Positions 1 to 25,988 of a DNA stretch of 64,000 nucleotides are shown piece after piece. The position numbers and the translations under genes were made by a program. Below the pieces are notes generated by a model that was given only the letters and a program-made list of their open reading frames with translations, ran no database searches and had not been told where the DNA came from. The DNA is from Candidatus Omnitrophota bacterium (GTDB lineage: Bacteria; Omnitrophota; Gorgyraeia; JACQQV01). The DNA is taken from contig JACQQV010000021.1 of NCBI GenBank assembly GCA_016206785.1, forward strand, positions 63,509 through 127,508. The letters run 5' to 3'. Within the stretch, counting starts at the first letter, position 1. Each line of letters begins with the position of its first letter.

Positions 1-46
1 TCGTCCACACCCTTCAGTTTTTCATTGAGGAGAAATGGCCACTCCC

Positions 47-1844
47 CTAGGAGGGAATCGAAAAGAGTTGCCAGAAGCGCTCCGACGCCCTGATAATAGA
101 GGGGAAGGAGTTCTTCTTGAAATCGATTTTCAATATCGCGGTGACGTTTCATTTTGTCAAGAAAGGAATCAGCAAATGGATATCCCCAGGCATGCTTTCC
201 GAGAGCGTAAACCAGGGCCTTCTGGTTTTGGGGGGAGACGCTCTCTACCTGTCTCAAGACATATCCGAATATTCGATCCTGTTTCAAACGCATCCGAAAG
301 GGTAAACCTTCAAGAGATCCTATGAGTCCCTCGACGAAATAAGGCTGATCTTCTTGACCCAGAGAACTCGCCCAATAATCGATCCTCTTCAAGAAAGCCT
401 TCTCGGAAGAACTCCACGCATTGCCGATCTCCTTAAGATAAAAAGGTTGATACATCCTGTCTAACTGTTTGACCCAAAGGAAAAGTTTTTCGAGATTTTC
501 CAGTGTCTCAGGGCGATAGACCATGTCTTGGCTTAAACCAAGATGGAAGTCGAACCGTTCGGAAGGAGATAAGCGCATATCCAATGCCTTTATTAAGTCT
601 GAAAGTTGGTTAAGATCCTGACCATGGCGATACGCAAGGGCCCACCCCAATTGACGATAGGAATACCCTCGATGCTTCAAGGAAAGGGCGAATTCTTTGA
701 ACCTCAGGAGATTCAGTTCACCCACACATCCCATCCCTAAAAGCAAAATAAGAATACCCAAAGAGACCTTTTGAAAGATTCTTGAGAAGTTTCCTAAACG
801 GACAAGTGCCAGAGCGATCACAGCAAAGAAAAAAGGAAAAAGAGGAACATAATAGCGGAATTCATAGATCCCCAGATGGAATCGACTGAGGCTTGCAGCG
901 GATAGGAAGAAGAGGGGGAACAGAAAAAAGAAATAAATTTTTTTATTCTCCTTTTCAAACTGGCAGAGGATGCCATAAGAAAAAAAGAGGGCGGCGTAAT
1001 AGACGATGTTGAAAAGTGTTATATGCGATAAGACATGGGTTCCTTCTCGATAATTGAAGGAAAAGAGTTGTATCAAACGAAGCGTCGCCAGTTTCAAGAA
1101 ACGAAAAGGAATAATCAGGGGCCGTTCCACAGAAGAATAGACAAAAGCCTCCTTGACACGATCGAAGCCATGAAAACCATAGAGGCCATTATAGAGTAGC
1201 CAGGGACTGAAACCGACGAGAAAAAAAAGGAGGAAAAGATAAAATTCTTTTTTTCGGAAGAGCCTTCGATCCTCGTAGCACCAGAAGAGAATAAAGCATG
1301 CGAGACTGACGACCTGCTGATAACTGAAATAAGTGCCGAATCCTTCTACAAGACCTAACCAGGCTGCACAACGCAGAGAATGTTTTCCATCGTACAGAAT
1401 ACGAAAGAGGAAGAAGAGTCCGAGTGCCGTAAAAAGAAGGGATTCGGCATGAACCCCCATTGCATACATCGCATAGAGGGTAAGATACGGAGGTGAAAAA
1501 AGGTAAAGGAGCGCTATATAAAGAGCTGCTTTCCTTCCAAAAAAGCGCTTCATGAACAGAGCCCATGTGAGGAACGTCCCCAATTGGAAAAAGAGGGCCG
1601 TCAGGCGAAGGACAAAAACACTTTTCCCAAAGACAAGAAACGAGGGGACCGTCAGGACTCCATAGACCAGGCTCCCGCCACTGTAGTGATCTGCAGCATA
1701 ATCAAAAAAGGGGATCTTTAATCCCTGGATGAGTTCTTTGGCAATGGTTCCTCGCTGGAGTTCTTCTGTGAAAGGCTCTGGGAAACAGTAAAGAAGGTGG
1801 AGAATTCGGGTGAGCAGAAAAACAATGGCGAGAAGAAAAATCAT
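47..1844 (-). CDS. GT-C fold membrane glycosyltransferase (ArnT/PMT-like, GT39/GT83-type), ~599 aa; absent from the supplied ORF track
   Basis: Manual minus-strand translation from ATG (revcomp of cat 1842-1844) to TAG (47-49) gives an uninterrupted ORF: MIFLLAIVFLLTRILHLLYCFPEPFTEELQRGTIAKELIQGLKIPFFDYAADHYSGGSLVYGVLTVPSFLVFGKSVFVLRLTALFFQLGTFLTWALFMKRFFGRKAALYIALLYLFSPPYLTLYAMYAMGVHAESLLF... It has at least 10 hydrophobic helices. The N-terminal region resembles ArnT/PMT-family polyprenyl-phosphate-sugar transferases. Its start abuts the stop of the upstream rSAM gene (TAAATG). Confidence 0.7.
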
Positions 1845-2930
1845 TTACGGGGCGGGTCGTCTCAAGCGCTCCTCGGCCAGAGCGAGCGCTTCGTAGTAAG
1901 GAACAGGGGCATCGAAGTTGTCCGCCTCCCCCCATCCATCCCGAGGGCAGCCACGGTAAAGGGGATGAAGACTTTTTCCGTCGGAAGGCTCTTTTTTCGC
2001 ATAAGCATCAAACCAATCAAGAAGGGTGCGCCACCCCTCGTGAACGGTTCCCTTCATTAGATTATACTTAGGGAAAGGAAAACTGACGCAAAAATTCATC
2101 TCCCCATAGGGAGTAATCGCGCAGGAGTTTTGGGCAGCCCGGCAATTCATCCGCCCTTTCCATCGCCTCGGTCCTTCCTCTCCTTTCTCGAGCGGTTTGT
2201 GGTAAACAAGAGGAAGGGGATCTTGAAGAAGTTGAGCCGCTTTGTCAGGATCGAGGCGGTAAACAAGCGGCTCGAGTGAACCGTCCGACTTGGGATGAAT
2301 TACGGTACTGGTTACGGCTCGGATTCCCCACCCCTTGGCCATCGCCTGCATCCTCTCCACTTCCTCAACGTTCACAGTCATGGCAGGAATGATGAGCGTT
2401 ACGGGGATCTTCTTCTTGATCAACCGCTCAATTCCAGAGATACATTTAGAGAAGGAGCCTGGAACAGAGGTCACTCTTTCATAAATCTTCCTTGTCGCTC
2501 CATAAAGTGAGAGGTCGACCTCCAGAGGAAGGAGAGATTGGAGACAATCGGCAATTTCCTCTGTCAGGAAGGTCCCATTTGTTTTCAGGGTAACGGCGAA
2601 TCCCTCCTCTTTAGCGCGAGTCAAAATGTCAAGAAAGTCTCTCCGCGTAAACATCTCTCCGCCTGTCAGGGTTAAAGAAAGGCATCCTTCTGTTCGGAGT
2701 TCTTTAAAAATAGAAATGATTTTCTCCGTCGGCATCTCCTCTTTCTTGGCCCTATGGGTAGGATTATAGCAATGGACGCAGCGGAGATTGCACCCGTAGG
2801 TCAGTTCCATAGTCGCCTCTAAAAGGGTCCGTGAGGATTCTGTTTTGCTAACGACGTTATCCCAAAACTCGATAGGAGAACGCTCCGGGATCGAAGGGGT
2901 TTTAGGATCTAGCGAGGGCATAGGCTTCAT
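1845..2930 (-). CDS. radical SAM/SPASM-domain peptide maturase-like protein (PqqE/MftC-like), 361 aa
   Basis: ORF track. Carries the CxxxCxxC motif LTYGCNLRCVHCYNP and a C-terminal Cys-rich SPASM-like region (CRAAQNSCAITPYGEMNFC). Paralogous to the two rSAM genes at 4040-6087. Confidence 0.8.
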   Translation of the reverse strand: MKPMPSLDPKTPSIPERSPIEFWDNVVSKTESSRTLLEATMELTYGCNLRCVHCYNPTHRAKKEEMPTEKIISIFKELRTEGCLSLTLTGGEMFTRRDFLDILTRAKEEGFAVTLKTNGTFLTEEIADCLQSLLPLEVDLSLYGATRKIYERVTSVPGSFSKCISGIERLIKKKIPVTLIIPAMTVNVEEVERMQAMAKGWGIRAVTSTVIHPKSDGSLEPLVYRLDPDKAAQLLQDPLPLVYHKPLEKGEEGPRRWKGRMNCRAAQNSCAITPYGEMNFCVSFPFPKYNLMKGTVHEGWRTLLDWFDAYAKKEPSDGKSLHPLYRGCPRDGWGEADNFDAPVPYYEALALAEERLRRPAP

Positions 2931-3831
2931 CAGGACGCGCCGCCTCCTTTAGAAAAGAAATAGCGCTTTGTTCTTTCACAAATCCGAATTGATAGCATGG
3001 GACACTCGAAAAAAGCTCTTCACAGAAGGCGAGCGCTTTTTGAATCCGTCCGCCATCCCAGTGTGGGAGGAAAAGTTGTGGGAGAAGAACCTCTGGGAAG
3101 TCTGACAGTGAAAGAGGCTTAAGAGAATTCTGAGAAGCGTGCTGAAGAAAAAAAAGTCCCCTAAGAGGCGCCGATTCTTGAGAGATTCGGAATGTATCCC
3201 CTGGCCACGGAGTTCCATGAAGGAAAAAAGAAGCGCCATCCTTTCGAATAATGACGGTCTCATCGCTCAAGATAGAAACGCCTCCTGTTCCAAGAAACAG
3301 ATGCGCAAGCGTACTCTTTCCCGAGCCAGAAGGACCCACAAAAGCTCTTCCCTCTCCCCCTTCTCGAATCCCAAGTCCATGGACAACGACCCCCTCTCCT
3401 TGACTTAAGAGGTGCACAAGAAGAATCTGCCCTAAGGGCTTCATAAATTCTGTAAAGGGCCAGCGGGGCTTTATCGGCGGAAAGAGTCTATGGAGAGGTC
3501 CAGAAACCCATCCAGGGGCAGCATAGACTTCACCTTCCGAGAAATCTTTCGTAAGGTGAGCAAGGAACTGTCTCTGCTTTGTCTTTGAATGAAAGGTTTC
3601 GATCCAATAATGGCCATCGCTTTCGTAAAGGGCCCAATGGTCTTTCAGTTCAAAAAGGACCCTTTCTTTTAAGAAATCGGGGAAACCGTTCTCGCAATGA
3701 ACCGTCAGATGAACCCTTGGTTTCCCCCGAAGAGGAAAAAGATCGTACCTGAAGGGAAAATCTCGTGGATGAGAATTTTCCCACTCAATGTGAAATCCAA
3801 TTCCTCCGATTTCGAGACTGAAAGAAGGCAT
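2902..3831 (-). CDS. HPr kinase C-domain-like P-loop protein (HprK-related kinase, as found in PqqD/lasso-peptide-kinase contexts), 309 aa
   Basis: The C-terminal half carries VVHGLGIREGGEGRAFVGPSGSGKSTLAH, which resembles the HprK P-loop GxSGxGKS(E/T). There is no N-terminal HPr-kinase regulatory domain. It lies 8 nt downstream of the candidate precursor ORF. Confidence 0.6.
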   Translation of the reverse strand: MPSFSLEIGGIGFHIEWENSHPRDFPFRYDLFPLRGKPRVHLTVHCENGFPDFLKERVLFELKDHWALYESDGHYWIETFHSKTKQRQFLAHLTKDFSEGEVYAAPGWVSGPLHRLFPPIKPRWPFTEFMKPLGQILLVHLLSQGEGVVVHGLGIREGGEGRAFVGPSGSGKSTLAHLFLGTGGVSILSDETVIIRKDGASFFLHGTPWPGDTFRISQESAPLRGLFFLQHASQNSLKPLSLSDFPEVLLPQLFLPHWDGGRIQKALAFCEELFSSVPCYQFGFVKEQSAISFLKEAARPDEAYALARS

Positions 3832-3842
3832 CTAAGGGGTAC

Positions 3843-4034
3843 CTAAGACGAGATCGCGCTGTTTCCCTGCGTTCTACTCCAACTTCGGCATCCATTTGCC
3901 CTACAGGTATTCGTACCGCTGTCAGAAGCAGAGGTCCCATTGGTGGCGCACTGAGAGAGGATCGCCTGTTCATGGTTTAACCGGATTCTAAAAATTTTCG
4001 GTGTTTCATACATCCTTTTCATTGTCTCTTCCAT
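3843..4034 (-). CDS. candidate RiPP precursor peptide, 63 aa (MEETMKRMYETPKIFRIRLNHEQAILSQCATNGTSASDSGTNTCRANGCRSWSRTQGNSAISS)
   Basis: A small ORF wedged between the rSAM gene (ends 4040) and the HprK-like gene (starts 3831). Minus-strand upstream sequence is gataAGAAGGAGGTaaagacaATG, a near-perfect Shine-Dalgarno about 7 nt before the ATG. The peptide has a charged leader-like N-terminus, then a Ser/Thr/Gly/Asn-rich segment with 3 Cys, and ends in Ser-Ser. Confidence 0.45.
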   Translation of the reverse strand: MEETMKRMYETPKIFRIRLNHEQAILSQCATNGTSASDSGTNTCRANGCRSWSRTQGNSAISS

Positions 4035-4039
4035 TGTCT

Positions 4040-5119
4040 TTACCTCCTTCTTATCTTTTCAGCCAAAAGATGCGCTGTCTGACAGAAATGATCGACCGGC
4101 ATCTCACTCTCTCCATTTTCAAAACGTGCCGGAAAAGGCATCTTCCCGCACATCGAATAGACCGTACACTGCCGACAGGGCGAATCGGTTTGATAGGTCA
4201 TTGTACGAATTTTTGGAAAAACTTCTTGGATCGCTTCCTGAAAGGAGTAATGTTTTAATGAAACTCTCGGCTCCCCAATAAAAGTACACGTTCCAAGCTC
4301 TCCCCAAGCCGAAACATGAAACGTATTGGTCCCGCAACCGCAGCGGTAAAGCCGATCGGTCGGCTCATCCGAAATTTCCACACAACGATCCTCGGTATCT
4401 ATGTCCTCGCCATTTATTTCAAGTTCAACAATTTCCTCTGGAGTGAGTCGATAGGCGCAGGGCTTCAAAGAACCATTCAAATCAGGATAGATATCGGTAC
4501 TGAAACGGAACTCCAGCCCGAAACTTTCGACCAGTTCTTTAATCTCATGGAGCCTTCCCCTGTTGAGCGTCATCGCTTTTGTTTTCACCTTGACCGGAAG
4601 TTTCCGTTCCACAAGAAGCCGCAATCCTTCAACAAATCGCTTGAAGGATCCGGGAACCTGAGTCACCGCGTCGAAAACCTCTTCCGTTCCTCCGTGGCAA
4701 CTCGTCTCAATCAAAAAAGGTGGGTCCTTCGCAAGCCGATCCGCAATCTCGGGAGTGATTATGGTGACATTCGTAAAAAGAATGAGAAGAAATCCTTTTT
4801 TCTTTGCATAGTCATAAATATCAAAAAAGTCCTTCCGCATGAAGATTTCGCCACCCGTAAGACAAAGCCAGAGACACCCCGCTTCATGGATTTCATCGAT
4901 CATCCGAAGGACCTCTTCATAAGAAAGCTCTTTTTGAATGTCCTGAGGGTTATTGTGGCAGTCGGTATAGCAGTGGACACAACGGATATTGCATTTATAG
5001 GTAAGTTCGATCTGGCCCCGGATTGGCATCCTTAAGTCATATCCCTTGTCATTGATCGCACTGCTGAAATCATGATACTCTATCTCAGGAATCGTTTCCT
5101 TCATCTTAAGGCCTCTCAC
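4040..5119 (-). CDS. radical SAM/SPASM-domain protein, 359 aa
   Basis: ORF track. Carries IELTYKCNIRCVHCYTD (CxxxCxxC) and SPASM-like C-terminal cysteines (CRQCTVYSMCGKMPF, CGCGTNTFHVSAWGELGTCTF). Confidence 0.8.
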   Translation of the reverse strand: MRGLKMKETIPEIEYHDFSSAINDKGYDLRMPIRGQIELTYKCNIRCVHCYTDCHNNPQDIQKELSYEEVLRMIDEIHEAGCLWLCLTGGEIFMRKDFFDIYDYAKKKGFLLILFTNVTIITPEIADRLAKDPPFLIETSCHGGTEEVFDAVTQVPGSFKRFVEGLRLLVERKLPVKVKTKAMTLNRGRLHEIKELVESFGLEFRFSTDIYPDLNGSLKPCAYRLTPEEIVELEINGEDIDTEDRCVEISDEPTDRLYRCGCGTNTFHVSAWGELGTCTFIGEPRVSLKHYSFQEAIQEVFPKIRTMTYQTDSPCRQCTVYSMCGKMPFPARFENGESEMPVDHFCQTAHLLAEKIRRR

Positions 5120-6087
5120 GGAGTTGAAGAAACCGCTTTGATTGGGATAAATCCGTTCTTCTTGAACATAAACTCCTTTTTAGGAAACCGGCATGGAAAA
5201 TGGGGAAGGTGATTGTAAAATCCATCGTGAAAAGAACCTTTTCGAAGGTCGTAACCCTTCATCCGGTTCCCGGAACAGAGTTGAAGCATCCCATACGCAT
5301 CGATATGAAAATTAAAGAAGCCTGATTCGCATTGGTAGGTTTCTGCCTCTCGTAATTGGATTTCCTTTTCCCGAAGCATCTGCGGATCTTTTTCCTCGAT
5401 CTCTCTCAGTTCTTTTTCAGAAAGTTGATATTCAAAAACATCCTCTGAGCCATCCAGGCGGTTCCGGATCTCCTCGCCAAATTTGAAGGAAACGTTTCCC
5501 AGACCCTTCACAAAAGCCCTGATCTTCAGAATCTCATCCCGATTCACCGTGAGTCCCGTCACCTTCAAAACAAGGTGGAGGTTTCTTTCTAAAAGAAGGT
5601 TGATCGCCCGTAATACTTTCTGAAAAGAGCCTTCTCCCTGCGTCACCTTTTCAAAAATCTCTTTCGATGTGGCATGAAGACTGATCTCGACGGAAAAAGG
5701 AGGATTTTCTTTCAGAAAATCGGAAACCTCCTCGGTAATCAAGGACCCATTGGTAAAAAGGGTGATTAAAAATCCCTTGTCCTTGGCAACCTTATAGATC
5801 TGGAAAAAATCTTTTCGCATAAAGATTTCGCCACCCGTCAAGGTAAGCCAAAGACATCCTCCTTTATGAAGTTCACCTAAGATCCGTAGGACTTCCTCAG
5901 TTTGAAGTTCTTTGGGAAAATATTGAGGATGATTATAGACATCTGTGTAGCAATGGATACAGTGAAGATTGCAGCGGCAAGTCAATTCCCATTGTCCGAT
6001 AAGAGGGAGTCTTCCCCTCTCACTCTTTGCGACGAGCCGCTTGAAAAACTCACGATCCGTAACAGAAGAAAGAAAATCGCATGCCAC
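5116..6087 (-). CDS. radical SAM/SPASM-domain protein, 323 aa
   Basis: ORF track. Carries WELTCRCNLHCIHCYTD (CxxxCxxC) and C-terminal Cys residues (CESGFFNFHIDAYGMLQLCSGNRMKGYD). It overlaps the downstream paralogue by 4 nt, which suggests translational coupling. Confidence 0.8.
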   Translation of the reverse strand: MACDFLSSVTDREFFKRLVAKSERGRLPLIGQWELTCRCNLHCIHCYTDVYNHPQYFPKELQTEEVLRILGELHKGGCLWLTLTGGEIFMRKDFFQIYKVAKDKGFLITLFTNGSLITEEVSDFLKENPPFSVEISLHATSKEIFEKVTQGEGSFQKVLRAINLLLERNLHLVLKVTGLTVNRDEILKIRAFVKGLGNVSFKFGEEIRNRLDGSEDVFEYQLSEKELREIEEKDPQMLREKEIQLREAETYQCESGFFNFHIDAYGMLQLCSGNRMKGYDLRKGSFHDGFYNHLPHFPCRFPKKEFMFKKNGFIPIKAVSSTP

Positions 6088-6092
6088 CCGCT

Positions 6093-6395
6093 CTATTCTC
6101 CCTTTTCCGCACCCGCAAAATGTTTCGGCTCTATGAGTCCTTCCCTCCTCAGTTTTTTAAGGAAGGAAAGCACATCATGCTTCACCCTTTTGGGTTCTGC
6201 TTCGAAGTTTTGTTCAATGTGTGTGATAAGTTCCTGAACGGTTCTACTCCCGTCCAACGCCTCCCAGATCGCTGCGCCAACAGGAGTGAGTTTGAGGAGG
6301 TCTCCCTCATCCTGATCCACGAGGATCGCTTCTTCCTCTACCCGTCGCCAAGGAATTCTTCCATTCTTCTCGAAGATATCCGTAAGTCTAAACAT
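6093..6395 (-). CDS. PqqD-family (RRE-like) small protein, 100 aa
   Basis: MFRLTDIFEKNGRIPWRRVEEEAILVDQDEGDLLKLTPVGAAIWEALDGSRTVQELITHIEQNFEAEP... matches the PqqD/RRE pattern: P..R..GE..L......L.N..A..IW.L.DG..T..E. Confidence 0.65.
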   Translation of the reverse strand: MFRLTDIFEKNGRIPWRRVEEEAILVDQDEGDLLKLTPVGAAIWEALDGSRTVQELITHIEQNFEAEPKRVKHDVLSFLKKLRREGLIEPKHFAGAEKGE

Positions 6396-7947
6396 GAAAA
6401 TGGATGAGGCGTAAAAAATAATTTTTTGTCTCTAGCCAAAGAAGAAAAAGGATTTTCCTTGCTTCTCTTCCCATTTTGTAGGTGAGGCCCTCACGAAAAT
6501 AGATCCAAAAAAGACGGAGATGTAGAAGTAAGGGATGGAAACCGAGACGCGCCGCTTCAAGTAGGTTCTCTTTTGCCAGACGAGACTCTTTTTTCTTGAG
6601 AAAGGCGGAACCGATCCAGAATTTCAGAATCGCCTCCGGCCCTTTGAGTTCGAGCGACTTCCGGAAAGCACTCAGGGCTCTATCCCACTCTCCCTGCTCG
6701 AAAAAAAGAGACCCTATCCCATAATAAGCCGTGGCCAGTCTGGGATTCTTCGAAAGGGCCTCTTCATAATAAAAGAGCGCCTGGGAAAAATCTTTCTCCG
6801 CCCTAAATGTATGGCCCAAACCGCAGAGTGCATGGGCGTGATTCGGGTCGAGGGTAAGAATCTTTTTGTACTCTTCCTCTGCCTTTTTCCATTGACCAAG
6901 ATTCTGATAGGCCGGTCCAAAATTGTTGTAGGCGGTGGCGTAGGTGGGATCCGCGGAAACCGCTTCTCGATAAAGTCGGGAGGCCTCTGTTTTCTCTCCC
7001 CTTTTTAGAAAGAGCAAAGAAAGATTGTAAAAGCTTGCAGCATCTTTTGGATTGACCCCAAGGGCCTTTCGATACTCCAAAATCGTCTCCTCCACCTTCC
7101 CCTCCTCTTCAAAGGCTTGTGCAGATCTTTTGTGATGATAAGCATCGTTTGGAGCGGAGGGGTCTCGGATAAGTTGTGCAAGGGCGTCTCCAAAATATTT
7201 ATAAGGAAGTGGAGTAAATCCCCCCTCGACAGAATAGGCAATCGTGACACAATCACTCCGGATACCCTTTGATCGCAAGGCGTCGACAACATTCTCTGGG
7301 AAGAGCCACGGTTTCTTACAGCGAGGGTCTTCATCCCCATGTTCTAAAAACCCTGAGATGAGGAAATCGGTATCAATATCAAGAAGAACCTCTTCTTCAA
7401 TAGTGGGAAGGTTCTGAAGAGTGCAGACAATCAATGGAAAGCCATAAAGTGTTGCCTGAGCCTTTGTTCCCTCAATACGGATATCGGTAAACGCTTCTGG
7501 ATGGTTTCTCCGAAATTCTCGAAAGATATAACCCATCTCTTTTTCCCAAGAAACCCCTCGGGGGGCTTCCGGGGTCGCCCAATAAAAAGCCCGAAGAAGG
7601 CCCTGCCGGAGAGCAGGGCAGATATAATTTCCGATATGGACGAAGGACTCTGTCCCTCGATCTGTGAAGTTCCAAAAGATCTTTTGTTGGGTAAGCGCTT
7701 CTAATTCTTGAGGAGAGGAGATACTGAGGAGATCGGAGAAGGACCTCTCAGGAATCCAATTGAAGTCGATGTGGGCATCGATATGGAGGAGGATGCGGTT
7801 TGAAAAGTTCCCTCTCTGCCAGGCCCAGAGGGCCTCATCATGATCTTCCATCAGGGTGACGGCAGGGAGAGGATCAATTCCTACCCGATCGTCTTGGGGA
7901 GTTGAAGACCTTCTTAAAGAAGGTTGGGTCGCTAACGCGTCGGTCAC
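6388..7947 (-). CDS. fusion protein: N-terminal UPF0489-like domain (putative metal-dependent hydrolase fold) plus C-terminal TPR repeats, 519 aa
   Basis: The N-terminus carries MEDHDEALWAW...ILLHIDAHIDFNW, which resembles the EDHHEVL...HFDSHPD signature I associate with UPF0489. The C-terminus carries at least 6 TPR-like repeats (AYNNFGPAYQNLGQWKKAEEEYKKILTLDPNHAHALCGLGHTF...). Confidence 0.6.
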   Translation of the reverse strand: MTDALATQPSLRRSSTPQDDRVGIDPLPAVTLMEDHDEALWAWQRGNFSNRILLHIDAHIDFNWIPERSFSDLLSISSPQELEALTQQKIFWNFTDRGTESFVHIGNYICPALRQGLLRAFYWATPEAPRGVSWEKEMGYIFREFRRNHPEAFTDIRIEGTKAQATLYGFPLIVCTLQNLPTIEEEVLLDIDTDFLISGFLEHGDEDPRCKKPWLFPENVVDALRSKGIRSDCVTIAYSVEGGFTPLPYKYFGDALAQLIRDPSAPNDAYHHKRSAQAFEEEGKVEETILEYRKALGVNPKDAASFYNLSLLFLKRGEKTEASRLYREAVSADPTYATAYNNFGPAYQNLGQWKKAEEEYKKILTLDPNHAHALCGLGHTFRAEKDFSQALFYYEEALSKNPRLATAYYGIGSLFFEQGEWDRALSAFRKSLELKGPEAILKFWIGSAFLKKKESRLAKENLLEAARLGFHPLLLHLRLFWIYFREGLTYKMGREARKILFLLWLETKNYFLRLIHFHV

Positions 7948-7950
7948 CGA

Positions 7951-8235
7951 TTATTTCTCTCGGATGATTCCGGTTTCCTTAAATTGCGCCAGAAGCCCCA
8001 AAAGATCTTTCTCTGCAACGTGAGGATCTATCTCAAATTCGGAGATAACCGTCTCGCAGACCTCTCGGACCGATTTCTTTCCATCAATCAGTTCCCAAAT
8101 CCTCGCCCCTACCTCATTCAACGTGAAGATGGCAGGTTCTTCCCCTAAGGTTTGACGAATAGGGACAAGGACCGTTTCTTCCGCGATTTTCCTTGATACA
8201 ATATTGGGAGATTTTTCGTAACTTGTTTCTAGCAC
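7951..8235 (-). CDS. PqqD-family (RRE-like) small protein, 94 aa
   Basis: ...PNIVSRKIAEETVLVPIRQTLGEEPAIFTLNEVGARIWELIDGKKSVREVCETV... fits the PqqD pattern. This is the second stand-alone copy in the locus. Confidence 0.65.
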   Translation of the reverse strand: MLETSYEKSPNIVSRKIAEETVLVPIRQTLGEEPAIFTLNEVGARIWELIDGKKSVREVCETVISEFEIDPHVAEKDLLGLLAQFKETGIIREK

Positions 8236-8278: not shown

Positions 8279-9085
8279 TCAAGGTTTTTGTGGGGTGAGA
8301 ATCGCATTGCAGTTGCTGAAATCCATCTCCACAACTTTAAAGTTCGAGTTCTCTATCTCACTCAAAAGCTCCGAGGGTTTGCTGAAAATGTGCCAATAGT
8401 GACCCATAAAGCAGACGTCTCCTTCTTCTAGCTCCCGATTGCCGCCAGAAAGGATTGCAAGCCACTTTTTGAGCCGGAACTTCCAACCCTTTTCCCGGAA
8501 ATCATCTCTACCACAAAACTCTAGATAAAAAAATCCGTCGTCTTTGAGATGAGATCGCATCTTTCTTAAAAAGGCGATCCGCCTTGTGCGGGTAGGAATT
8601 TCGCTATACATCGACTGGCTCAGAAAAAGCGCGTCATGCTTTCTTGCCGGTGATAAACTATCAAGTACATTTCCCACTTCAAAGTGGCAATTTTTTAAGG
8701 AAAGGGCACGGACATGTTCTTTTGCTCTTTCTACAAGATCCTGGGAGGTCTCGATTCCCGTAACCTCAAATCCTAATTTCGCCAAGGCGAGGGATTCCCG
8801 ACCACCGCCAGACATCAGTACAAGACACTCCTTTTTTCCTTTTAAATATTTTGTCACAAATTGAGATTCTTCTGGGCTCAGTCCCCTCGTTCGTACCGCT
8901 TCCCCCGCCAAAGCCTCTGAAAAGTCCCTCCGATTATAAAACTGTTCAACAAATTTTTCGAGATCTTTAGGTTTTGAGAGAACTAGTACAAGTGACCCAA
9001 AGGCTGAAGAAATCTTTTCCTGAAAACGATTCAAGAGAAGGTCGATGCGCACCAAAACGGAAACAAGGAAAAACCGAGCACTCAT
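8279..9085 (-). CDS. class I SAM-dependent methyltransferase, 268 aa
   Basis: Carries the motif I-like segment CLVLMSGGGRESLALAKLGFEVTGIETSQDLVERAKEH, and DALFL/post-I motifs. Confidence 0.65.
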   Translation of the reverse strand: MSARFFLVSVLVRIDLLLNRFQEKISSAFGSLVLVLSKPKDLEKFVEQFYNRRDFSEALAGEAVRTRGLSPEESQFVTKYLKGKKECLVLMSGGGRESLALAKLGFEVTGIETSQDLVERAKEHVRALSLKNCHFEVGNVLDSLSPARKHDALFLSQSMYSEIPTRTRRIAFLRKMRSHLKDDGFFYLEFCGRDDFREKGWKFRLKKWLAILSGGNRELEEGDVCFMGHYWHIFSKPSELLSEIENSNFKVVEMDFSNCNAILTPQKP

Positions 9086-10230: not shown

Positions 10231-12126
10231 ATGGTAGAAACAGTGAAGCCTATTGGTGTTTTAACCGATCTTCTTCAAATAACGGACATTCCAGAGATTA
10301 TCGATCTTTTGATCGCGTCCAAGAAGGCCCGTTTCACCATTGAAGGCTTCAGCATGTACCCCACCCTCCGAGTAGGAGACATCGTTGAGGTGGACCCCCT
10401 AACAAAAGAAACGCTTGAAGTAGGAGACCTTGTTGTTTTTCAAAAAGAAAAGAAACTCATCTGTCACCGCCTGGTAGAGATTTTTGAGAAAAACGGGGAG
10501 GCGTGGATTAAGACAAAGGGGGATACGGTCGAGGAGAGTGACACCCCACTCGCCCTTCGTCAGATCCTGGGAAAGGTGACGCGCATTGAGCGAGACGGAA
10601 TTCCTCGGATCCCCTCGGCCGTTCCTCAAAAACTTTCCTTTGCAGAAATCATCTTCTTCTCTGCCTATCGGCAATTCGGGGGAAAACTCAGACCGAAACT
10701 GAGAACAGTTTTCTTACGCAGTCTCTCTTCTCTTTTATTCCGCCGCGTGTATCGCTTCCTGTTCCGTCCCGATGTGATTTATTCTGTCAGAATTCCAACT
10801 GCTTCGACTCCTGATCCGAAATTCTGGCGGTCTGTTCAAAGTCTCCCGGGGGCGAATGAGTCTTTACAGGACGCTTCGGTCTATCGCTTTTTTGCAAAGG
10901 TAGGCAAAAATGTCGTTGGAAGTCTTGAGGTGCGGACTCTCGATAAAACCGCTTCGCAATGGAGGGTTTCCCATCTTTTCGTGAGGGCAAGGTACCGGGG
11001 GTGCCACGTTGCAACAACACTCCTGAGAAGATCGTTTCAGAGGCTCAGACGACAAGGAGCCTCCTTATTAAGCATAGAAGTGGGTCCTCAAAATCGTCCC
11101 GCACTTTCCCTTCTAAAACAACTAGGCTTCGACGACGCCGTACAAAAAGATCCTTTCGTCCTTCAGAAAGACCTTTCGTTCCCGCTCAAGCGCTTAAGAG
11201 GCGAAAAAGAACTGCAACCGTTTCTTTATCACGCTCTTCCCTCTGATACGCTCAAAGAAAGCTTCCTCAGGAGCGTCGCAAAACACCTCTTCTTCGAACA
11301 GGCCCTTCTTGAGATAGACACCGTTTTCAAAAATGCGGGAATACCTTTTATCGTACAGAAGGGAATGGCACTTGCGTATACCCTTTACCCCGACCCTGCG
11401 ACGCGACCGATGGTGGATATCGATCTGTATCTACGTAAAAACGATGTCCCCTCGGCCATATCCCTTTTAGAAGGACTCGGCTATGAACTGGGAGCAGCCA
11501 AGTTTCGAGAAGAACTGATCACCTTCGGGGGAGAGCTCAGCTTCCACAAAAAAAATGCCCCTTTTGTTGAACTCCACTGGTGCCTTGAACAGTATGAGCG
11601 ATTGAAAGGAATTGTAAAAGTTGACGAGGAAGACCTGTGGAAAAGGACTGTCTCCTATACGATTTCAGGAAGAAAATTTCTGACCCTCTGTTCAGAGCAT
11701 CAACTGCTCGCGCTTTCCATCCACCTCGGTCTCATTCATCGGTTTCGTGGCTCTCTCAAGTGGTTTCTGGACATCGATCAGTTCGTCATGAAATTCGGGG
11801 AGGACCTGGATTGGGAGGAACTTTTTCAAACCGCACGGCGATGGGGAATTGAACGGGTGTTTTGCCAAGTGCTCCTTGCAACCCAGGAGCTCTTCAACAC
11901 CCCCCTTCCTCCTCTTCCGATTCAAAATTCTTCATTCTTCCTGAGACATCCCATCTTTCAATGGTTCCTCCCAGATCGTCCCTCCGACCGCCTCCGGGTC
12001 CTCTTCCGGATCTTCTTCCCGAGCCGGGAATGGCTCATCTACCGATATCGCCTCAAACGGCGCGACCTCATCCCCTTCCACCGCTTCCTCCATCCTCTCT
12101 TTGTTCTTATCGGCAAGACAAGGTAG
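10231..12126 (+). CDS. tri-domain protein: N-terminal S24/S26-type peptidase-like domain, central GNAT acetyltransferase, C-terminal nucleotidyltransferase-like (NTP_transf_5-type) domain, 631 aa
   Basis: The N-terminus carries EGFSMYPTLRVGDIVEVD...DLVVFQKEKKLICHRLVEIF...KTKGDTV (compare signal-peptidase/LexA G-S-M-x-P-T-L...GD motifs). The central region ...SLEVRTL...VRARYRGCHVATTLLRRSFQRLRRQGASLLSIEVGPQN is GNAT-like. I assign the C-terminal region to uncharacterised nucleotidyltransferases. The upstream RBS is GAGAAGGatg. Confidence 0.6.
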   Translation: MVETVKPIGVLTDLLQITDIPEIIDLLIASKKARFTIEGFSMYPTLRVGDIVEVDPLTKETLEVGDLVVFQKEKKLICHRLVEIFEKNGEAWIKTKGDTVEESDTPLALRQILGKVTRIERDGIPRIPSAVPQKLSFAEIIFFSAYRQFGGKLRPKLRTVFLRSLSSLLFRRVYRFLFRPDVIYSVRIPTASTPDPKFWRSVQSLPGANESLQDASVYRFFAKVGKNVVGSLEVRTLDKTASQWRVSHLFVRARYRGCHVATTLLRRSFQRLRRQGASLLSIEVGPQNRPALSLLKQLGFDDAVQKDPFVLQKDLSFPLKRLRGEKELQPFLYHALPSDTLKESFLRSVAKHLFFEQALLEIDTVFKNAGIPFIVQKGMALAYTLYPDPATRPMVDIDLYLRKNDVPSAISLLEGLGYELGAAKFREELITFGGELSFHKKNAPFVELHWCLEQYERLKGIVKVDEEDLWKRTVSYTISGRKFLTLCSEHQLLALSIHLGLIHRFRGSLKWFLDIDQFVMKFGEDLDWEELFQTARRWGIERVFCQVLLATQELFNTPLPPLPIQNSSFFLRHPIFQWFLPDRPSDRLRVLFRIFFPSREWLIYRYRLKRRDLIPFHRFLHPLFVLIGKTR

Positions 12127-12350: not shown

Positions 12351-13206
12351 TCAGACGCGGACCCAGCGAATTCCTTTTTCCTTGCGGAACCAAGTCTCCT
12401 GACGTTTGGCGTATTGGCGGGTTAAGCGTTGAATATGGGTAATAGCCTCTTCGAGGGAAGATTCCCCTTTGAGGTAAGAGAAAAGTTCTTGAAGCCCGAT
12501 GATTCTTTTTGCAGTAAAACTCAGTCTCTTCCGGAGAAGCCTCTTAACTTCCGCAACAACATCATTGCGAATCATCTTTTCCACCCGACGATCGATCCTC
12601 TGATAAAGAACTTTTCGGGGGTGGCGTAATCCGATTTTCTGAATCCGAAACAAAGCTGAGAACCCACCTCCCCCCTCTGCGAACTCCGAGGGTTTTCTCC
12701 CGGTGACTTCGTAAATCTCAAGGGCGCGAATCAGACGATAGGTATCGTTGGGATGAATCTTTTTTGCCCGACGGGGATCGATCGCACGTAATCTTTCGTA
12801 CAAATAAGCGTTTCCCTTCTCCTTCACAAGCCTTGAATATTTTTTCCGAATCGTGGGATCGGCTTTGACGGGAGCGTGCTTTCCTCCCAAAAGGGCCTTG
12901 AGATAAAAACCGCTCCCCCCCACAAGGATTGGCACCTTTCTTCGGCGTGCAATGTCTTGAATAACACTTTTTGCGCGTTGGGAAAATTCAGCCGCGCTAA
13001 ATTCCTTATGTAGAGGGAGAAAACCGATAAGATGATGGGGAATTTTCTTTTGATCCTCTGGGAGGGGTTGGTTGGTGAGGATTGGAACGCCTCGGTACAC
13101 CTGCATGGCGTCGCAGGAGATAATTTCACCTTTGCATCGTTTCGCCAGGCGGAGGGCAAGCCGGCTTTTCCCGCTGGCGGTAGGGCCAACAATGACAATA
13201 AGTTTT
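12351..13206 (-). CDS. miaA: tRNA dimethylallyltransferase MiaA
   Basis: LIVIVGPTASGKSRLALRLAK...ISCDAMQVYRGVPILTNQP... The track ORF extends to 13298 and overlaps the upstream ATPase gene. The likely true start is a GTG (VKKLIVIVGPTASGKS) at about 13206. Confidence 0.85.
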
Positions 13207-13207
13207 T

Positions 13208-14023
13208 TCACCTCGCTTCCTGAACAACTTCCTGGATGGTCTGCTCGTCGATGGAAGTGGCTTTTTTGCCCAATCCTGAGAGAAGGGACAGATTGCATAA
13301 AGTATTGATCTTCCTCGGAATGCCTCCGCTATGTTCGTAGATGAGCTGGATCGCATCGTCCGTAAAGATCGGGTCCTCTCGACCGGCGGTCGTAAGCCGG
13401 GTCTGGATATAATGGCGCGTCTGCTCTTCGTCCAAACCCTCCAGATGGCATTTGATCTCGATCCGCTGCGAAAAGGGCTTGAATCGGTTCACATGTTCCC
13501 TCAACTCAGGTTGGCCGAACAAAAGGAGGGTCAGTAAAAACTGGTCGTTTGACTGAAAGTTGAGGAGGAGCCGCAATCCCTCCAGCACAGAAGGATCTTC
13601 GATCACATGGGCCTCATCCACAATAATGACCGTCTCGCTCCCATCCTTCAAATTATCGTAAAGGATATCCTTCAGCTCATTGAGGAGAAATGTCGCCACA
13701 AGATCCGATTTCTTCGTCGGGAGGTTCTTTCCGCCCCCTAATGCTTGAACGATTGCAGCCAGAAGTTCAATGTAATCCAGTTTTGGATTCCGGATGAAGG
13801 CGATCTTATATTTCTCTCCAACCAGCCCTTTCAACAGGGCTTCCCCCAATAACGTCTTTCCACATCCAAAGATCCCTGTCAACATGGCTGCCCCCACCTT
13901 CTCTTGGACGGCATACAAGAGCCTTGAAAGGGCTTCGTCATGTTGGGGGGAGGCGTAGAAGAATCGGGGATCGGGAGTATTTTGAAAGGGCATGAGATTG
14001 AATTTCCAATATTCTTTATACAT
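13208..14023 (-). CDS. ExeA/MshM-like AAA ATPase (putative secretion ATPase of PEP-CTERM loci), 271 aa
   Basis: Walker A is LTGIFGCGKT and Walker B is VIIVDEAH. The gene lies next to the PEP-CTERM/exosortase locus. Confidence 0.7.
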   Translation of the reverse strand: MYKEYWKFNLMPFQNTPDPRFFYASPQHDEALSRLLYAVQEKVGAAMLTGIFGCGKTLLGEALLKGLVGEKYKIAFIRNPKLDYIELLAAIVQALGGGKNLPTKKSDLVATFLLNELKDILYDNLKDGSETVIIVDEAHVIEDPSVLEGLRLLLNFQSNDQFLLTLLLFGQPELREHVNRFKPFSQRIEIKCHLEGLDEEQTRHYIQTRLTTAGREDPIFTDDAIQLIYEHSGGIPRKINTLCNLSLLSGLGKKATSIDEQTIQEVVQEAR

Positions 14024-14459: not shown

Positions 14460-15431
14460 CTACACCTCCTTTTGTTTTGCGTGAACGTCTCTAAATTGAA
14501 ACTCTGTTTCTACCCTTTGAAAAGGTTTCCCGTCCAACTCGACATACGGATAGAAAAAAATATTGACCGGCTCGCCCTTCTGTTTTGGAACCAGTTGGAT
14601 ATTACGCCCTGTACTGATGAGAAGACGGTTTGCATCATAAGTTCCGAAGTAATACTCCCGCTTCTCTGGGTATTTCCATGCTTCCGAGGCATCCACGGAA
14701 ATCCACCCCTTTCCGTCGACATAAAACTCGGCCCAGCAGTGATACCCTGGAATTTTACCCTCTGATTCCTGTTCAGGGATAGGGATCCCGATTTTAAAAC
14801 GCGAGGGAATTTTACTCGCCCGCGCCAAGGAGATAAAGAGCGAATGAAAATCGGTGCAGTTCCCTTTGCCGACAAGACAGGCTCGCGCCGTATCCCCATT
14901 TCCCCATCCCGGTGTCGTCTTGTCATACTGCATATGGGAAAGGACGTAGTCATAAATGGCCCTTCCCTGTTCTAAAGGAAACACCTTCCCTTGGGTTACT
15001 TCTTTGGACAACCCCTGAATTCTTTCATCCACCACCATCCATTGGCCCGAGCCGAGGTGGAGACGTCTTTGAAAGGGGGTCTCCTGCAAGGGGTTTCTTC
15101 TTTCCTCTACAGTCACATGGTAGGTAATGGCAACGTCGATCTTTTGGGGAAGTGGCGGCTTCAGAAAAAGATGGAGGATCTCATTGCCATAGCGAGGTTC
15201 CTGAAAGATTTGATAAGGGGAAGAGGCGACGATTTTTCGGTCCAGGATCCTCTGGTTGGCCTCTGTGCGTGCCAAAGGGATCCAGATCCGGATCTGTTTT
15301 GCGTCGGGGGGAATTTCCTGAATCAAGGCATGGTAAGTGAGCTCAAACTCCCGCTCTGATTCTCGGGCTTCACTTTTTGAATCACTCAATATCAATAATG
15401 GGGTTACAATAAGTACTATCCATTTCCTCAT
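14460..15431 (-). CDS. transglutaminase-like cysteine protease domain protein with signal peptide
   Basis: Carries GKGNCTDFHSLFISLARASKIPSRF...GYHCWAEFYVDGKGWISVDASE, the Cys-His-Asp transglutaminase core. The likely start is MRKWIVLIVTPLLILS at about 15431, preceded by a GAGGAG RBS. The track ORF is over-extended to 15524. Confidence 0.75.
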   Translation of the reverse strand: MRKWIVLIVTPLLILSDSKSEARESEREFELTYHALIQEIPPDAKQIRIWIPLARTEANQRILDRKIVASSPYQIFQEPRYGNEILHLFLKPPLPQKIDVAITYHVTVEERRNPLQETPFQRRLHLGSGQWMVVDERIQGLSKEVTQGKVFPLEQGRAIYDYVLSHMQYDKTTPGWGNGDTARACLVGKGNCTDFHSLFISLARASKIPSRFKIGIPIPEQESEGKIPGYHCWAEFYVDGKGWISVDASEAWKYPEKREYYFGTYDANRLLISTGRNIQLVPKQKGEPVNIFFYPYVELDGKPFQRVETEFQFRDVHAKQKEV

Positions 15432-15444
15432 CTCTTTTTTCTCC

Positions 15445-16242
15445 TCATTCTTTTTGGGCGGGCGAAAAGGGGGTGACCAGAAGCCCCAGGAAGCTCTGCC
15501 ACCTCTCTGCTTCAAATGCGTCAAGTCCGTAATGGAGGGTCAAGATGTCCTCTTTCCTCCGGAAACTTTTAGCAAAGCGGTCCCAGAAAGAAAAAATACT
15601 GGAATAGTTCGAATCGGTCTCCGGCTGGAAGTGGGAATGATGGACCCGGTGCATATTCGGGGTGACAAGGAGGATGCGAAAGAGACGATCCCACCTTTCA
15701 GGCAAAGCCACATTGCTATGATGAAAAAGGATAATCGGAAGAAGAATCGTTTCGTAGAGGATCAGTTGCCAAAGAGTCAAGCCTAAGAGATACAGGATGC
15801 CGAATCTCACAAGAGAAGAAAGAGTCAGCTCTCCGATATGAAACCGGAGTGCTGTGGTGACGTCTAACTGGGGATCGCTATGATGCATCCTGTGAAACCG
15901 CCATAAAAAAGGCATCTGGTGGTTCGCCCTATGCCAAAGGTACATCCAAAGATCAAAAACAAAAATGGCGATAGCGGCTTCGGTCCAGAAAGGGATTTCG
16001 ATCCAGTGGAGGAGTCCGAACCCCTGGAATTCCGCCGCCTCTGTGATAAACGCGGTCGCCCCTGAGAAAAGGAATCCCGTCATCGCTCCATTCATGAGTC
16101 CCATCGCAATATTGCGGGACCCGTGACGGAGTCTTTCCTTTCTTTCCTTGAAAAGCGGAAGCCACGCTTCAAGGATCAAAAGTAGCGAGAGGATCACGAT
16201 CTCAAGAAGAATCTTCCCTTCTTTCAAACCCTCTGGATCCAT
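15445..16242 (-). CDS. fatty acid hydroxylase/sterol desaturase superfamily membrane protein, 265 aa
   Basis: Carries the histidine boxes HRANH...HRMHHSD...HHSHF. Confidence 0.7.
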   Translation of the reverse strand: MDPEGLKEGKILLEIVILSLLLILEAWLPLFKERKERLRHGSRNIAMGLMNGAMTGFLFSGATAFITEAAEFQGFGLLHWIEIPFWTEAAIAIFVFDLWMYLWHRANHQMPFLWRFHRMHHSDPQLDVTTALRFHIGELTLSSLVRFGILYLLGLTLWQLILYETILLPIILFHHSNVALPERWDRLFRILLVTPNMHRVHHSHFQPETDSNYSSIFSFWDRFAKSFRRKEDILTLHYGLDAFEAERWQSFLGLLVTPFSPAQKE

Positions 16243-22189: not shown

Positions 22190-23527
22190 ATGAAACTCAT
22201 TCAGCACCTTGAACAGCGTCAGATCCTTGCCCCTTCTTTAAGGCAAGCACTCCATATTCTTCAACTCTCCACCCTGGAACTCCAGACCCTCATGGAAAAA
22301 GAGCTCCAGGAAAACCCCTGTTTGGAAGAGGAGCGGCCCCGCGGGTCGCAGGAAAAGACACTCCCCTTTGAAACGGTTGTTCCCCCCACATCCCATTTTT
22401 CAGCCTCTGAAGAGGATGAGGAGATATGGAACTACCGGGAGAGTTTGGTGACCAAGCCGATAACGCTGGGTGAACATCTGCTCCATCAGCTCCGTCTCTT
22501 TTGTACTTCAGAACAGGATTGCCGGATTGGGGAAGTCCTCATCGGCTCCCTCGATGAGAATGGATACCTCCGTGAGTCGGTCGAAGAGATTGCGGCCCTG
22601 CATCATGTCTCCCCCACCGACGTCGAACGGCTTCTTTCTCTCATTCAGGGATTTGATCCTCTTGGCGTCGGTGCACGCGATCTTGCAGAATGCCTTCTTC
22701 TTCAACTCGACTCCCACTCTCCGCTCGAGTCCACAATCATTCGTGATCACCTCTCGGACCTACAGGCCAAACGAGTGGACCTCATCCAAAAGAAACTCAA
22801 GGTCTCCGAAGAAAAACTCAAGGAAGCGGTCCGCCGCATCATGGCCCTGGAACCGAAGCCGGGACGTTCCTTTAGCCATCCCAAAACCAGCTACGTGACT
22901 CCTGACATCACTGTAAAGAAGGGGAAGGAAAACACCTTTGAGATTCTCCTCAATGATGAGGAACTCTCCCCTCTACGACTCAACCCCACCTATGAAAGGC
23001 TTTTAAAGGGAAACAACCTCTCCGAATCAGATAAAACTTTCTTAAGAGAAAAAATGCAGTCGGCCCAGTTTCTCATGCGGGCCATTCGCCAAAGGAAAGA
23101 GACACTCCAGCAACTCGCAGAAGCGCTTGTCGCGTTTCAGAAAGAGTTTTTTGAGCAGGGCCCCAGCGCTCTCAGGCCCATGACGATGGATGAGATGGCG
23201 AGCTGCATTCAGAAGCACCGTTCGACGGTAAGCCGGGCGGTCAAAAATAAATTCATCCAGACTCCCTATGGTCTTTTCGAGATCAAATTCTTCTTCACGG
23301 GCGATATGGGCAGTTTGGAGAACGAGGGAGTTTCTTCGAGAGCGGTTAAGGAAAGAATTAAAGAATTGATACAAAATGAAAATCCCGCCGCTCCCTTAAG
23401 CGACGACGAGATCCTTCAAAAACTTCAGGAAGAGGGGATTTCGATTAAACGTCGGACGGTTTCCAAATATCGGCAAACCCTTGGGTTTTCTTCCTCTTTC
23501 CTCAGGAAAAATAGACTTTCCCGTTAA
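22190..23527 (+). CDS. rpoN: RNA polymerase sigma-54 factor RpoN, 445 aa
   Basis: The N-terminal region I is Gln/Leu-rich (LRQALHILQLSTLELQ). The C-terminal RpoN box is KRRTVSKYRQ, and a HTH precedes it. Confidence 0.9.
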   Translation: MKLIQHLEQRQILAPSLRQALHILQLSTLELQTLMEKELQENPCLEEERPRGSQEKTLPFETVVPPTSHFSASEEDEEIWNYRESLVTKPITLGEHLLHQLRLFCTSEQDCRIGEVLIGSLDENGYLRESVEEIAALHHVSPTDVERLLSLIQGFDPLGVGARDLAECLLLQLDSHSPLESTIIRDHLSDLQAKRVDLIQKKLKVSEEKLKEAVRRIMALEPKPGRSFSHPKTSYVTPDITVKKGKENTFEILLNDEELSPLRLNPTYERLLKGNNLSESDKTFLREKMQSAQFLMRAIRQRKETLQQLAEALVAFQKEFFEQGPSALRPMTMDEMASCIQKHRSTVSRAVKNKFIQTPYGLFEIKFFFTGDMGSLENEGVSSRAVKERIKELIQNENPAAPLSDDEILQKLQEEGISIKRRTVSKYRQTLGFSSSFLRKNRLSR

Positions 23528-24584: not shown

Positions 24585-25988
24585 TTAAACATGCTGAAGC
24601 GCCTCACCCCTTCCTCCAAATAAATTGTATTTTCTCATCTTATTATAGAGGGTGGTGCGGTTGACACCGAGAAGCGCGGCCGCTTTTTTACGATTCCAAT
24701 GGCACTCCTGAAGAGTTCTTAAAATCATCTCTCTCTCCGGTTCGCCGAGCATCTCTTTTAAGGAGCGGCTTGTCGTCTCTCCTCCTTCGGCAGAAACCGA
24801 CAGTTGATGAAAAAGATCGGGTAGATCTCCTTCGGTTAAAAGATCTCCATGCCCAACGATGGTTGCCCGTTCCATGACATTCTCGAGTTCCCGGACATTG
24901 CCCGGCCACTGATACGCTTCGATCGCCTTAAGAAACCCATCCGAAACACCCGAAAATTTCTTTTTGTTCTTCACTGAAAATTTTTTTAAAAAATGTTCGA
25001 TAAGGACAGGGATATCCTCTTTCCGCTCACGGAGCGAAGGGAGCCCAATCGCAATGACATTCAGTCGGTAATAAAGGTCTTCGCGGAACTTTCCTTGCTC
25101 GATGAGTTCTTCCAAATTCTGATTGGTGGCGGCGATGATCCGGACATCGACCCGAATGGTCTTGGTGTCGCCGACCCGCTCAAATTCCCCCTCCTGGAGG
25201 ACGCGGAGAAGTTTAACCTGAAGCGCCGGCGAAAAGGTGTCAATTTCATCCAGAAGGATGGTGCCGCCGTCCGCCAACTCGAAACGCCCCATCCGGTCCT
25301 TGATGGCACCGGTGAAAGCGCCTTTCACATGGCCAAAGAGTTCGCTCTCCAAAAGGGTCTCAGGAATCGCCGCGCAACTGACCTCCACGAAGGGTTTGTC
25401 CTTCCGAGCCGGATCATTCGCATGAATGGCCAAAGCGACCAACCGTTTCCCCGTACCACTTTCCCCCTTGATGAGAAGGGTCGCTTTCGTATCAGCGATC
25501 GTCTCGATCAAGGTATAGATCTTCTGCATCTTCTCATGTTTTCCAATGAGCTGATGGAAGGTATCACGGCCTGTGCGGGCCAGTTGCTGCCGGAGGGCGA
25601 TGTTTTCTTCGATGAGGTTTTTCTGTTCAAAAAGTTTTTTGATGACGATCTTGATCTCACCGTCCATGATGGGCTTGGTGATATAATCGGCCGCCCCAAG
25701 CCGCATCGCCTCGACCGCCTGATCAATCGTCCCGTAGCCCGTGATGAGGATCACGGGGATCTCCGGGTGCTTTTCTCTCACCTGCTTCAAAAGATCTATC
25801 CCGGAGAACTTCGGCATTTTGATGTCGGCGATCACGATATCGATCGGAAGCCGCTCGATTTTTTGCAGGGCCTCTTCCCCATCGGAGGCCATCTCCGCTT
25901 CATACCCTTCGAAACGAAGGGTTTCGTAGAGAGATTTCCGAATGAGTGGTTCGTCGTCGACAATGAGGATGCGTCCGTTACCTGGCAT
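24585..25988 (-). CDS. sigma-54-dependent response regulator (NtrC family; candidate PEP-CTERM-system regulator PrsR-like)
   Basis: Receiver domain [14 protein letters not shown]...D, AAA+ sigma-54 activator domain ([28 protein letters not shown]), and a C-terminal Fis-type HTH. The likely start is [10 protein letters not shown]; the track ORF starts at 26015. Confidence 0.9.

Follow-up and report, generated by a model that had tools for sequence, protein, structure and literature searches.

What does an enzyme of the HPr kinase type do in a gene cluster that carries no sign of HPr? This question is raised by a 64,000-nucleotide stretch from a Candidatus Omnitrophota bacterium (contig JACQQV010000021.1, positions 63,509 to 127,508)—called the window hereafter, which always means the stretch at its full length. 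An open reading frame (ORF) at 2902–3831 encodes a 309-residue protein with the phosphotransferase fold of HPr kinase/phosphorylase (HprK/P) and phosphoenolpyruvate carboxykinase (PEPCK), surrounded by a small peptide gene, radical S-adenosylmethionine (SAM) enzymes, and PqqD-type leader-recognition proteins. In our assessment, the protein is very probably a maturase of a peptide made on the ribosome and modified post-translationally (RiPP) that acts on the adjacent precursor, and it is probably—with more reservation—a peptide kinase. For the full statement including the site, namely a leader-dependent kinase of the C-terminal Ser63 in an uncharacterised radical-SAM RiPP class, we consider the chances to be even. 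The elements on which the argument is built are as follows:

2902–3831, minus strand: ScmC-family protein with the HPrK/PEPCK fold, 309 residues, ATG start; proposed precursor-peptide kinase
3310–3336, minus strand: Walker A P-loop GPSGSGKST, residues 166–174, from the sequence and the family alignment
3259–3381, minus strand: catalytic segment, H151 via the P-loop to D190-E191, aligned with H...GxSGxGKS...DD of the L. casei HprK/P
3843–4034, minus strand: precursor peptide, 63 residues, MEETMKRMYETPKIFRIRLNHEQAILSQCATNGTSASDSGTNTCRANGCRSWSRTQGNSAISS, with YxxPxI leader, three Cys, and C-terminal Ser

The kinase-like protein and its family

The gene at 2902–3831 is real and not a chance ORF, because a "hypothetical protein" of a Candidatus Omnitrophica metagenome-assembled genome (database entry P0001) is 100% identical to its product, a database search yields homologues down to E = 1e-144, and the family profile, made from 46 relatives and run against a library of 1.8 billion proteins, is matched at E ≤ 1e-30 by approximately 3890 clusters (50% identity). 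As stated in the first-pass annotation of this DNA, the protein contains VVHGLGIREGGEGRAFVGPSGSGKSTLAH with the P-loop GPSGSGKST inside. Its start codon (ATG at 3831) lies 11 nucleotides past the stop codon of the precursor (3843–3845), a gap previously given as 8 nucleotides. The 3′ end of the gene overlaps with the gene for radical-SAM protein A by 29 nucleotides and, hence, translational coupling is plausible.

The AlphaFold2 model, for which the family alignment was the input, has high confidence (predicted local distance difference test 91.2, predicted template modeling score 0.89). The protein consists of two domains—an N-terminal β-sheet domain (approximately residues 1–125) and a C-terminal P-loop phosphotransferase domain. 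A Foldseek search with this model against solved structures returned HPrK/P and PEPCK entries only, as expected from the earlier claim of an HprK/P C-terminal kinase fold, and the best PDB sequence match of one family member is the L. casei HprK/P, across H...GxGxLxxGxSGxGKS...DDRV. The C-terminal PEPCK-like P-loop kinase domain of canonical HprK/P (PF07475) is present in the window protein. Its catalytic tetrad of the His-Lys-Asp-acid type—H151, K172, D190, and E191—is conserved in the family: H151, G166, G171, K172, S173, and T174 are invariant in all 46 aligned relatives, D190 is kept in 45 of them, and position 191 is acidic throughout (Glu in 34, Asp in 12).

The placement among named families is based on a comparison of hidden Markov model (HMM) scores from NCBIfam, where the curated cut-offs are 240 bits for TIGR00679, 125 bits for TIGR04249, and 200 bits for both TIGR04352 and TIGR04355. 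Against TIGR04249 (SynChlorMet cassette protein ScmC), the window protein scores 23 bits (E = 4.2e-5), which sets it apart from the ScmC equivalog. The comparison with the HprK-related kinase models that had been proposed as a check gives 22.5 bits for kinase B (TIGR04355) and 19.0 bits for kinase A (TIGR04352), also below the cut-off. Matches are found for 36 of the 46 relatives with TIGR04249, 45 with TIGR04355, 38 with TIGR04352, 12 with PEPCK, and 9 with the canonical hpr-ser model; none of these NCBIfam matches comes near its cut-off, the best one to TIGR04249 reaching E = 2e-9 and approximately 37 bits. ScmC matches can cover the whole protein (for P0062, residues 33–307 correspond to profile positions 24–290 of 292), whereas those to models other than TIGR04249 are limited to approximately 55 to 65 residues around the active site. 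Furthermore, Pfam PF27840 (ScmC, broad family) is precomputed on the identical entry P0001. Judged by these profiles, the window protein belongs to the broad ScmC family as a divergent representative and lies outside every curated equivalog.

The likeness to ScmC (TIGR04249; PF27840) extends to the length of approximately 290 to 310 residues, the two-domain layout, and the cassette partners, as ScmD (PqqD-like) and ScmE/ScmF (radical SAM/SPASM) have counterparts in the window cluster; the precursor family and the C-terminal Ser rule described below are not part of the SynChlorMet model names. With the HprK-related kinases A and B, the protein shares a weak but consistent match over H...P-loop...DD. 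The "HPr-rel-A system" also has a PqqD-family chaperone (TIGR04353) as well as a nucleotidyltransferase, and the window cluster bears two PqqD genes and an NTP_transf_5 domain; the family names of these kinases, however, imply no radical-SAM partner. The first-pass annotation had seen here the context of HprK-related kinases A/B or of the Ser kinases of lasso peptides. Its observation is confirmed and its interpretation partly supported. The PqqD and nucleotidyltransferase neighbors are in place, the kinase A/B scores are under their cut-offs, lasso genes are missing from the cluster, and the label used here is ScmC-like.

Two further readings, which the first-pass annotation had itself raised as threats to its interpretation, can be dismissed at this point. 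The fold and the H...P-loop...DD segment are common to HprK/P, and the protein could, thus, be a canonical HprK/P whose N-domain has degenerated and whose role is to control carbon metabolism via HPr or Crh. This is effectively refuted by score, domain content, signature loop, and gene context: the window protein has no match to TIGR00679 (canonical HprK/P) at E ≤ 0.01, and the best relative reaches 27 bits against the required 240; the N-terminal regulatory domain Hpr_kinase_N was not found in the window protein, whose N-terminal half had already been called unrelated to it; and GTPWPG is invariant in the family in place of the HprK signature loop LE[IV]RG[LV]G. A regular-expression search in all six frames of the 64 kb—a weak test—detected neither an HPr-like motif nor this signature loop, which agrees with the reported lack of ptsH or crh nearby, and the linkage is always to RiPP genes. 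The genomic role also differs from that of HprK/P. PEPCK, with approximately 520 to 600 residues, large extra domains, and a small-molecule substrate, shows only approximately 10 to 12% sequence identity to the window protein. Even more remote is a P-loop of another NTPase class (ABC or AAA-type kinase), in which the HprK likeness would be a chance match of the Walker A motif. Weak ABC_tran, AAA_33, and ABC-transporter matches do appear in the Pfam and PDB sequence searches, but they span merely 20 to 30 residues around Walker A, and the structure searches, which place no ABC or AAA protein above HPrK/PEPCK, refute this reading.

Conserved context and precursor peptides

A comparison of 23 loci—from Omnitrophota, Aminicenantes, Nitrospirae, Methylomirabilota, Deltaproteobacteria, Acidobacteriota, Actinomycetota, and one Thaumarchaeota-labelled contig—finds PqqD, at least one radical-SAM gene, and the ScmC-like protein together in every single one. 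Because of this co-occurrence, the coupling to PqqD and radical-SAM (SPASM-type) maturases is the defining context of the ScmC-like family, and what had been described as unusual for this locus turns out to be its normal state. NTP_transf_5 accompanies these genes in at least 13 of the 23 loci and an S24 peptidase in approximately 8. The minimal cassette consists of PqqD, radical SAM, precursor, and ScmC, and is often found beside Peptidase_C25 proteins. In some relatives, the PqqD leader-binding domain is fused to ScmC; these natural fusions indicate, on the level of domain architecture, that the ScmC-like enzyme works on a leader-bearing peptide.

The precursor gene of the window has GGAGG ahead of its ATG. 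Small ORFs adjoining the homologues form one family, which is characterized by a leader Y-x-x-P-x-[IVL]—resembling the YxxPxL recognition motif of lasso peptides—three conserved Cys, and a terminal Ser. The precursor peptides of the ScmC-like family are newly recognised here. In the branch of the window, all 18 neighboring precursors carry the terminal Ser, and for two of them (L015 and L018) it is the sole Ser of the core. Among the best 120 matches of a precursor profile search, which comprise 116 distinct C-termini, 117 end in Ser; the three others are fragments of 38, 42, and 53 residues that miss one or two Cys, so that 117 of 117 full-length precursors end in Ser. The Ser background over the preceding 34 positions is 12%.

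The spacing within these peptides varies. In precursors of minimal cassettes (L004/L015/L017/L018 type), the spacing from the third Cys to the terminal Ser hardly varies and is C-x4-S(COOH), while this distance in the subfamily of the window is variable at approximately 9 to 20 residues. The Actinomycetota loci L019–L023, with the gene order PqqD, ScmC-like, and radical SAM, bear different precursors of 50 residues (e.g., MKRQEADKRTYEKPRMKVMRINRFFFGGCQVIWPNCYSMYLFVPGSARCR) with three Cys and a Cys-Arg end (L019 8114–8266; L020 3662–3814; L021 8923–9075; L022 9918–10070; L023 9591–9743).

Two side observations concern the cassettes. The 486-residue database protein P0039 is a PqqD–ScmC fusion, whose C-terminus drifts from the family alignment into a complete precursor (MSTKKTYVSPQV...NSLATS); the probable explanation is that two genes were joined by a frameshift or an assembly artefact. 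The Peptidase_C25 (gingipain-like) proteins that flank minimal cassettes are very large, some with FG-GAP or SdrD_B repeats (L004 2113–7716; L024 8217–14183; L025 1–5595; L026 786–4941), and may be the leader peptidase or be tied to export or the cell surface.

Proposed phosphorylation of the terminal Ser

The closest functional parallel comes from lasso peptides. According to reviews, the lasso-peptide kinases PadeK, ThcoK, SyanK, and PsmK are HPrK homologues that phosphorylate the C-terminal Ser of linear, leader-bearing precursors, which are alike in little but this invariant residue. They bear conserved and essential His-Lys-Asp-Asp residues (PMC9266682) and co-occur with a PqqD-type RiPP recognition element and an "uncharacterised nucleotidyltransferase"—PsmN, an "uncharacterised NTP transferase" that adds hexoses to the Ser phosphate in pseudomycoidin (PMC6993621). 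The window protein has the fold, the tetrad, the terminal-Ser precursor, and the PqqD and nucleotidyltransferase partners in common with these systems. It differs in that its cluster contains no cyclase and no B2 protease, and that, in the loci of its family, the radical-SAM maturases number one to three and the conserved Cys three. Furthermore, the N-terminal β-domain has no known counterpart, and no locus lacks the kinase-like gene, which is, hence, class-defining, whereas it is optional tailoring in lasso clusters. The protein is best classed as an HPrK-type RiPP Ser kinase in a radical-SAM pathway and not in a lasso pathway.

In the mechanism proposed here, an ATP-dependent phosphotransferase of the HPrK/PEPCK fold would rank among the core maturases of the radical-SAM RiPP cluster and would bind the linear, leader-bearing precursor, aided by a PqqD-type leader-recognition protein, and phosphorylate the hydroxyl group of the invariant C-terminal Ser63 of the 63-residue peptide. 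The phosphoserine might then optionally be elaborated by the NTP_transf_5 domain protein in the way that PsmN does in pseudomycoidin. Cross-links of the three conserved Cys would be the work of the three radical-SAM enzymes, and leader removal that of the S24 domain. The family of approximately 3900 clusters ranges over Omnitrophota, Nitrospirota, Acidobacteriota, Methylomirabilota, Desulfobacterota, Chloroflexota, and others. It is conceivable, although we put this generalization somewhat below even chances, that an HPrK/PEPCK-fold kinase is the class-defining maturase of a widespread RiPP class, in which a three-Cys peptide cross-linked by radical-SAM enzymes receives from it a (poly)phosphate on the invariant C-terminal Ser, possibly with further glycosylation or nucleotidylation.

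Could the phosphate be transient instead? The phospho-Ser, C-terminal or internal, would then be eliminated to dehydroalanine as in class II–IV lanthipeptide synthetases, with the outcome that a Cys traps the dehydroalanine as a thioether ring or that a C-terminal dehydroalanine is hydrolysed to a C-terminal amide. The kinase fold and the catalytic residues fit this scenario equally well, as does the role of the enzyme as core component rather than optional tailoring, and the C-x4-S(COOH) arrangement of the minimal-cassette subfamily (CSSLIS, CYNPGS, CQQDGS, CITHAS, and many more) suggests a ring from Cys to the last residue. We nevertheless regard it as unlikely: no lyase or cyclase domain was found in the cluster, the subfamily of the window, with its C-x14-S, departs from the Cx4S spacing, thioether formation is already explained by the radical-SAM enzymes, and the co-occurring NTP_transf_5 better suits a persistent phosphate. 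A little less probable still is that the protein does not phosphorylate the peptide at all and uses its P-loop in another ATP-dependent role—as a chaperone or scaffold by which the precursor is offered to the radical-SAM enzymes, or as a small-molecule phosphotransferase that resembles PEPCK and makes a co-substrate available. Conservation goes beyond the nucleotide-binding loop and includes the His and Asp/Glu on which phosphoryl transfer depends in HPrK/P and lasso kinases, the PqqD fusions speak for an enzyme that acts on the peptide itself, and the invariant terminal Ser would be left unexplained by such a role.

Several points weigh against a kinase of the terminal Ser. The role of the ScmC-like family is read here from sequence, context, and a predicted structure, and every named-family HMM match falls far under its curated cut-off. 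Likewise, the likeness to lasso kinases is one of fold, tetrad, terminal Ser, and partners, and not of sequence comparison; the PDB matches include no lasso kinase. The query profile of the precursor search included the terminal-Ser column, which introduces a small bias of a few bits in scores of 48 to 83. For minimal cassettes, it is equally conceivable that the single radical-SAM enzyme uses the terminal Ser as a substrate. Finally, the distant Actinomycetota branch has the same gene set, yet its precursors end in ...CR and not in Ser; hence, targeting of a C-terminal Ser cannot be universal for the wider family.

Phosphorylation is rare among peptide natural products and, to our knowledge, the HPrK-type peptide kinases described so far all serve lasso peptides, where their tailoring step is optional. 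Searches of the openly accessible literature found no description of this cluster type. If the proposed kinase function is true, phosphorylation would be seen for the first time in natural products of the sacti- or ranthipeptide-like kind, and ScmC or "SynChlorMet" proteins—so far only a bioinformatic family—would obtain a first function together with their unrecognised precursor peptides. This would point to a reservoir of phosphorylated and thioether-cross-linked peptides that is large, mostly uncultivated, and broad in its phylogenetic range. Thanks to the invariant C-terminal Ser, the kinase hypothesis can be tested directly, and ScmC-like relatives are potentially useful in peptide engineering, because lasso kinases reportedly demand little beyond a terminal Ser.

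The surrounding gene cluster and its boundaries

The other genes of the cluster and its flanks are the following:

3–1844, minus strand: PMT_2-family membrane glycosyltransferase (GT-C type), at least 614 residues; runs off the start of the window
1845–2930, minus strand: radical-SAM protein A, 361 residues, reduced C-terminal Cys set
4040–5119, minus strand: radical-SAM/SPASM protein B, 359 residues, Cx2Cx5C; weak full-length match to the mycofactocin maturase model
5116–6087, minus strand: radical-SAM protein C, 323 residues, twitch-like, reduced C-terminal Cys set
6093–6395, minus strand: PqqD-family leader-recognition protein 1 (PqqD1), 100 residues; best NCBIfam match lasso_PqqD_Bac
6388–7947, minus strand: peptide-arginase-like (UPF0489 / FlmR_OhkR_N) N-terminus with TPR repeats, 519 residues; NF052474, E = 4.7e-8
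7951–8235, minus strand: PqqD-family leader-recognition protein 2 (PqqD2), 94 residues; weak TIGR04353 match
8279–9085, minus strand: SAM-dependent methyltransferase, 268 residues
9082–10161, minus strand: GDSL/SGNH-family hydrolase, 359 residues; cluster membership uncertain
10231–12126, plus strand: fusion of S24/S26 peptidase, GNAT acetyltransferase, and NTP_transf_5 (PF14907), divergently transcribed
12351–13298: miaA, marks the cluster boundary

The neighbors that had been reported are, thus, in place—two PqqD proteins, three radical-SAM proteins, and a protein with an NTP_transf_5 domain. That the radical-SAM proteins are SPASM maturases needs qualification, as only protein B (4040–5119) bears the SPASM-type Cx2Cx5C motif and seven or more C-terminal Cys, whereas A and C have only three to four C-terminal Cys each (twitch-like); a Pfam scan reported no SPASM domain match for any of the three. 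PqqD1 and PqqD2 are matched about equally (54–64 bits) in a BLAST comparison with the PqqD domains that are fused to ScmC in relatives, and the weak TIGR04353 match of PqqD2 is to "HPr-rel-A system PqqD". The fusion of S24, GNAT, and NTP_transf_5 at 10231–12126 is unusual; S24 and NTP_transf_5 are separate genes in related loci. Its S24/S26 domain is a candidate leader peptidase, and its NTP_transf_5 domain a candidate modifier of the phosphoserine. Directly downstream of radical-SAM protein A and on the same strand, the PMT_2 glycosyltransferase is a possible member of the cluster that might attach sugar to the peptide.

A lasso cluster is rejected, as neither a lasso cyclase (Asn-synthetase-like) nor a B2 protease is among the cluster ORFs. 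A Transglut_core protein at 14460–15524 lies beyond miaA, with no cyclase nearby, and the ORFs annotated out to approximately 28 kb are housekeeping or regulatory. These include rpoN (sigma-54) near a sigma-54-dependent response regulator and a GAF histidine kinase (22190–23527, plus strand; 24585–27291, minus strand), with no hprK, ptsN, or npr-type genes alongside rpoN in the window. The window contains no Rfam elements and no tRNAs.

The arginase-like/TPR protein (6388–7947) has a counterpart in 9 of the 23 related loci, and its domain assignment suggests a conversion of Arg to ornithine in an Arg-containing core. In most loci with this protein, the third Cys of the precursor is followed by Lys or Arg.

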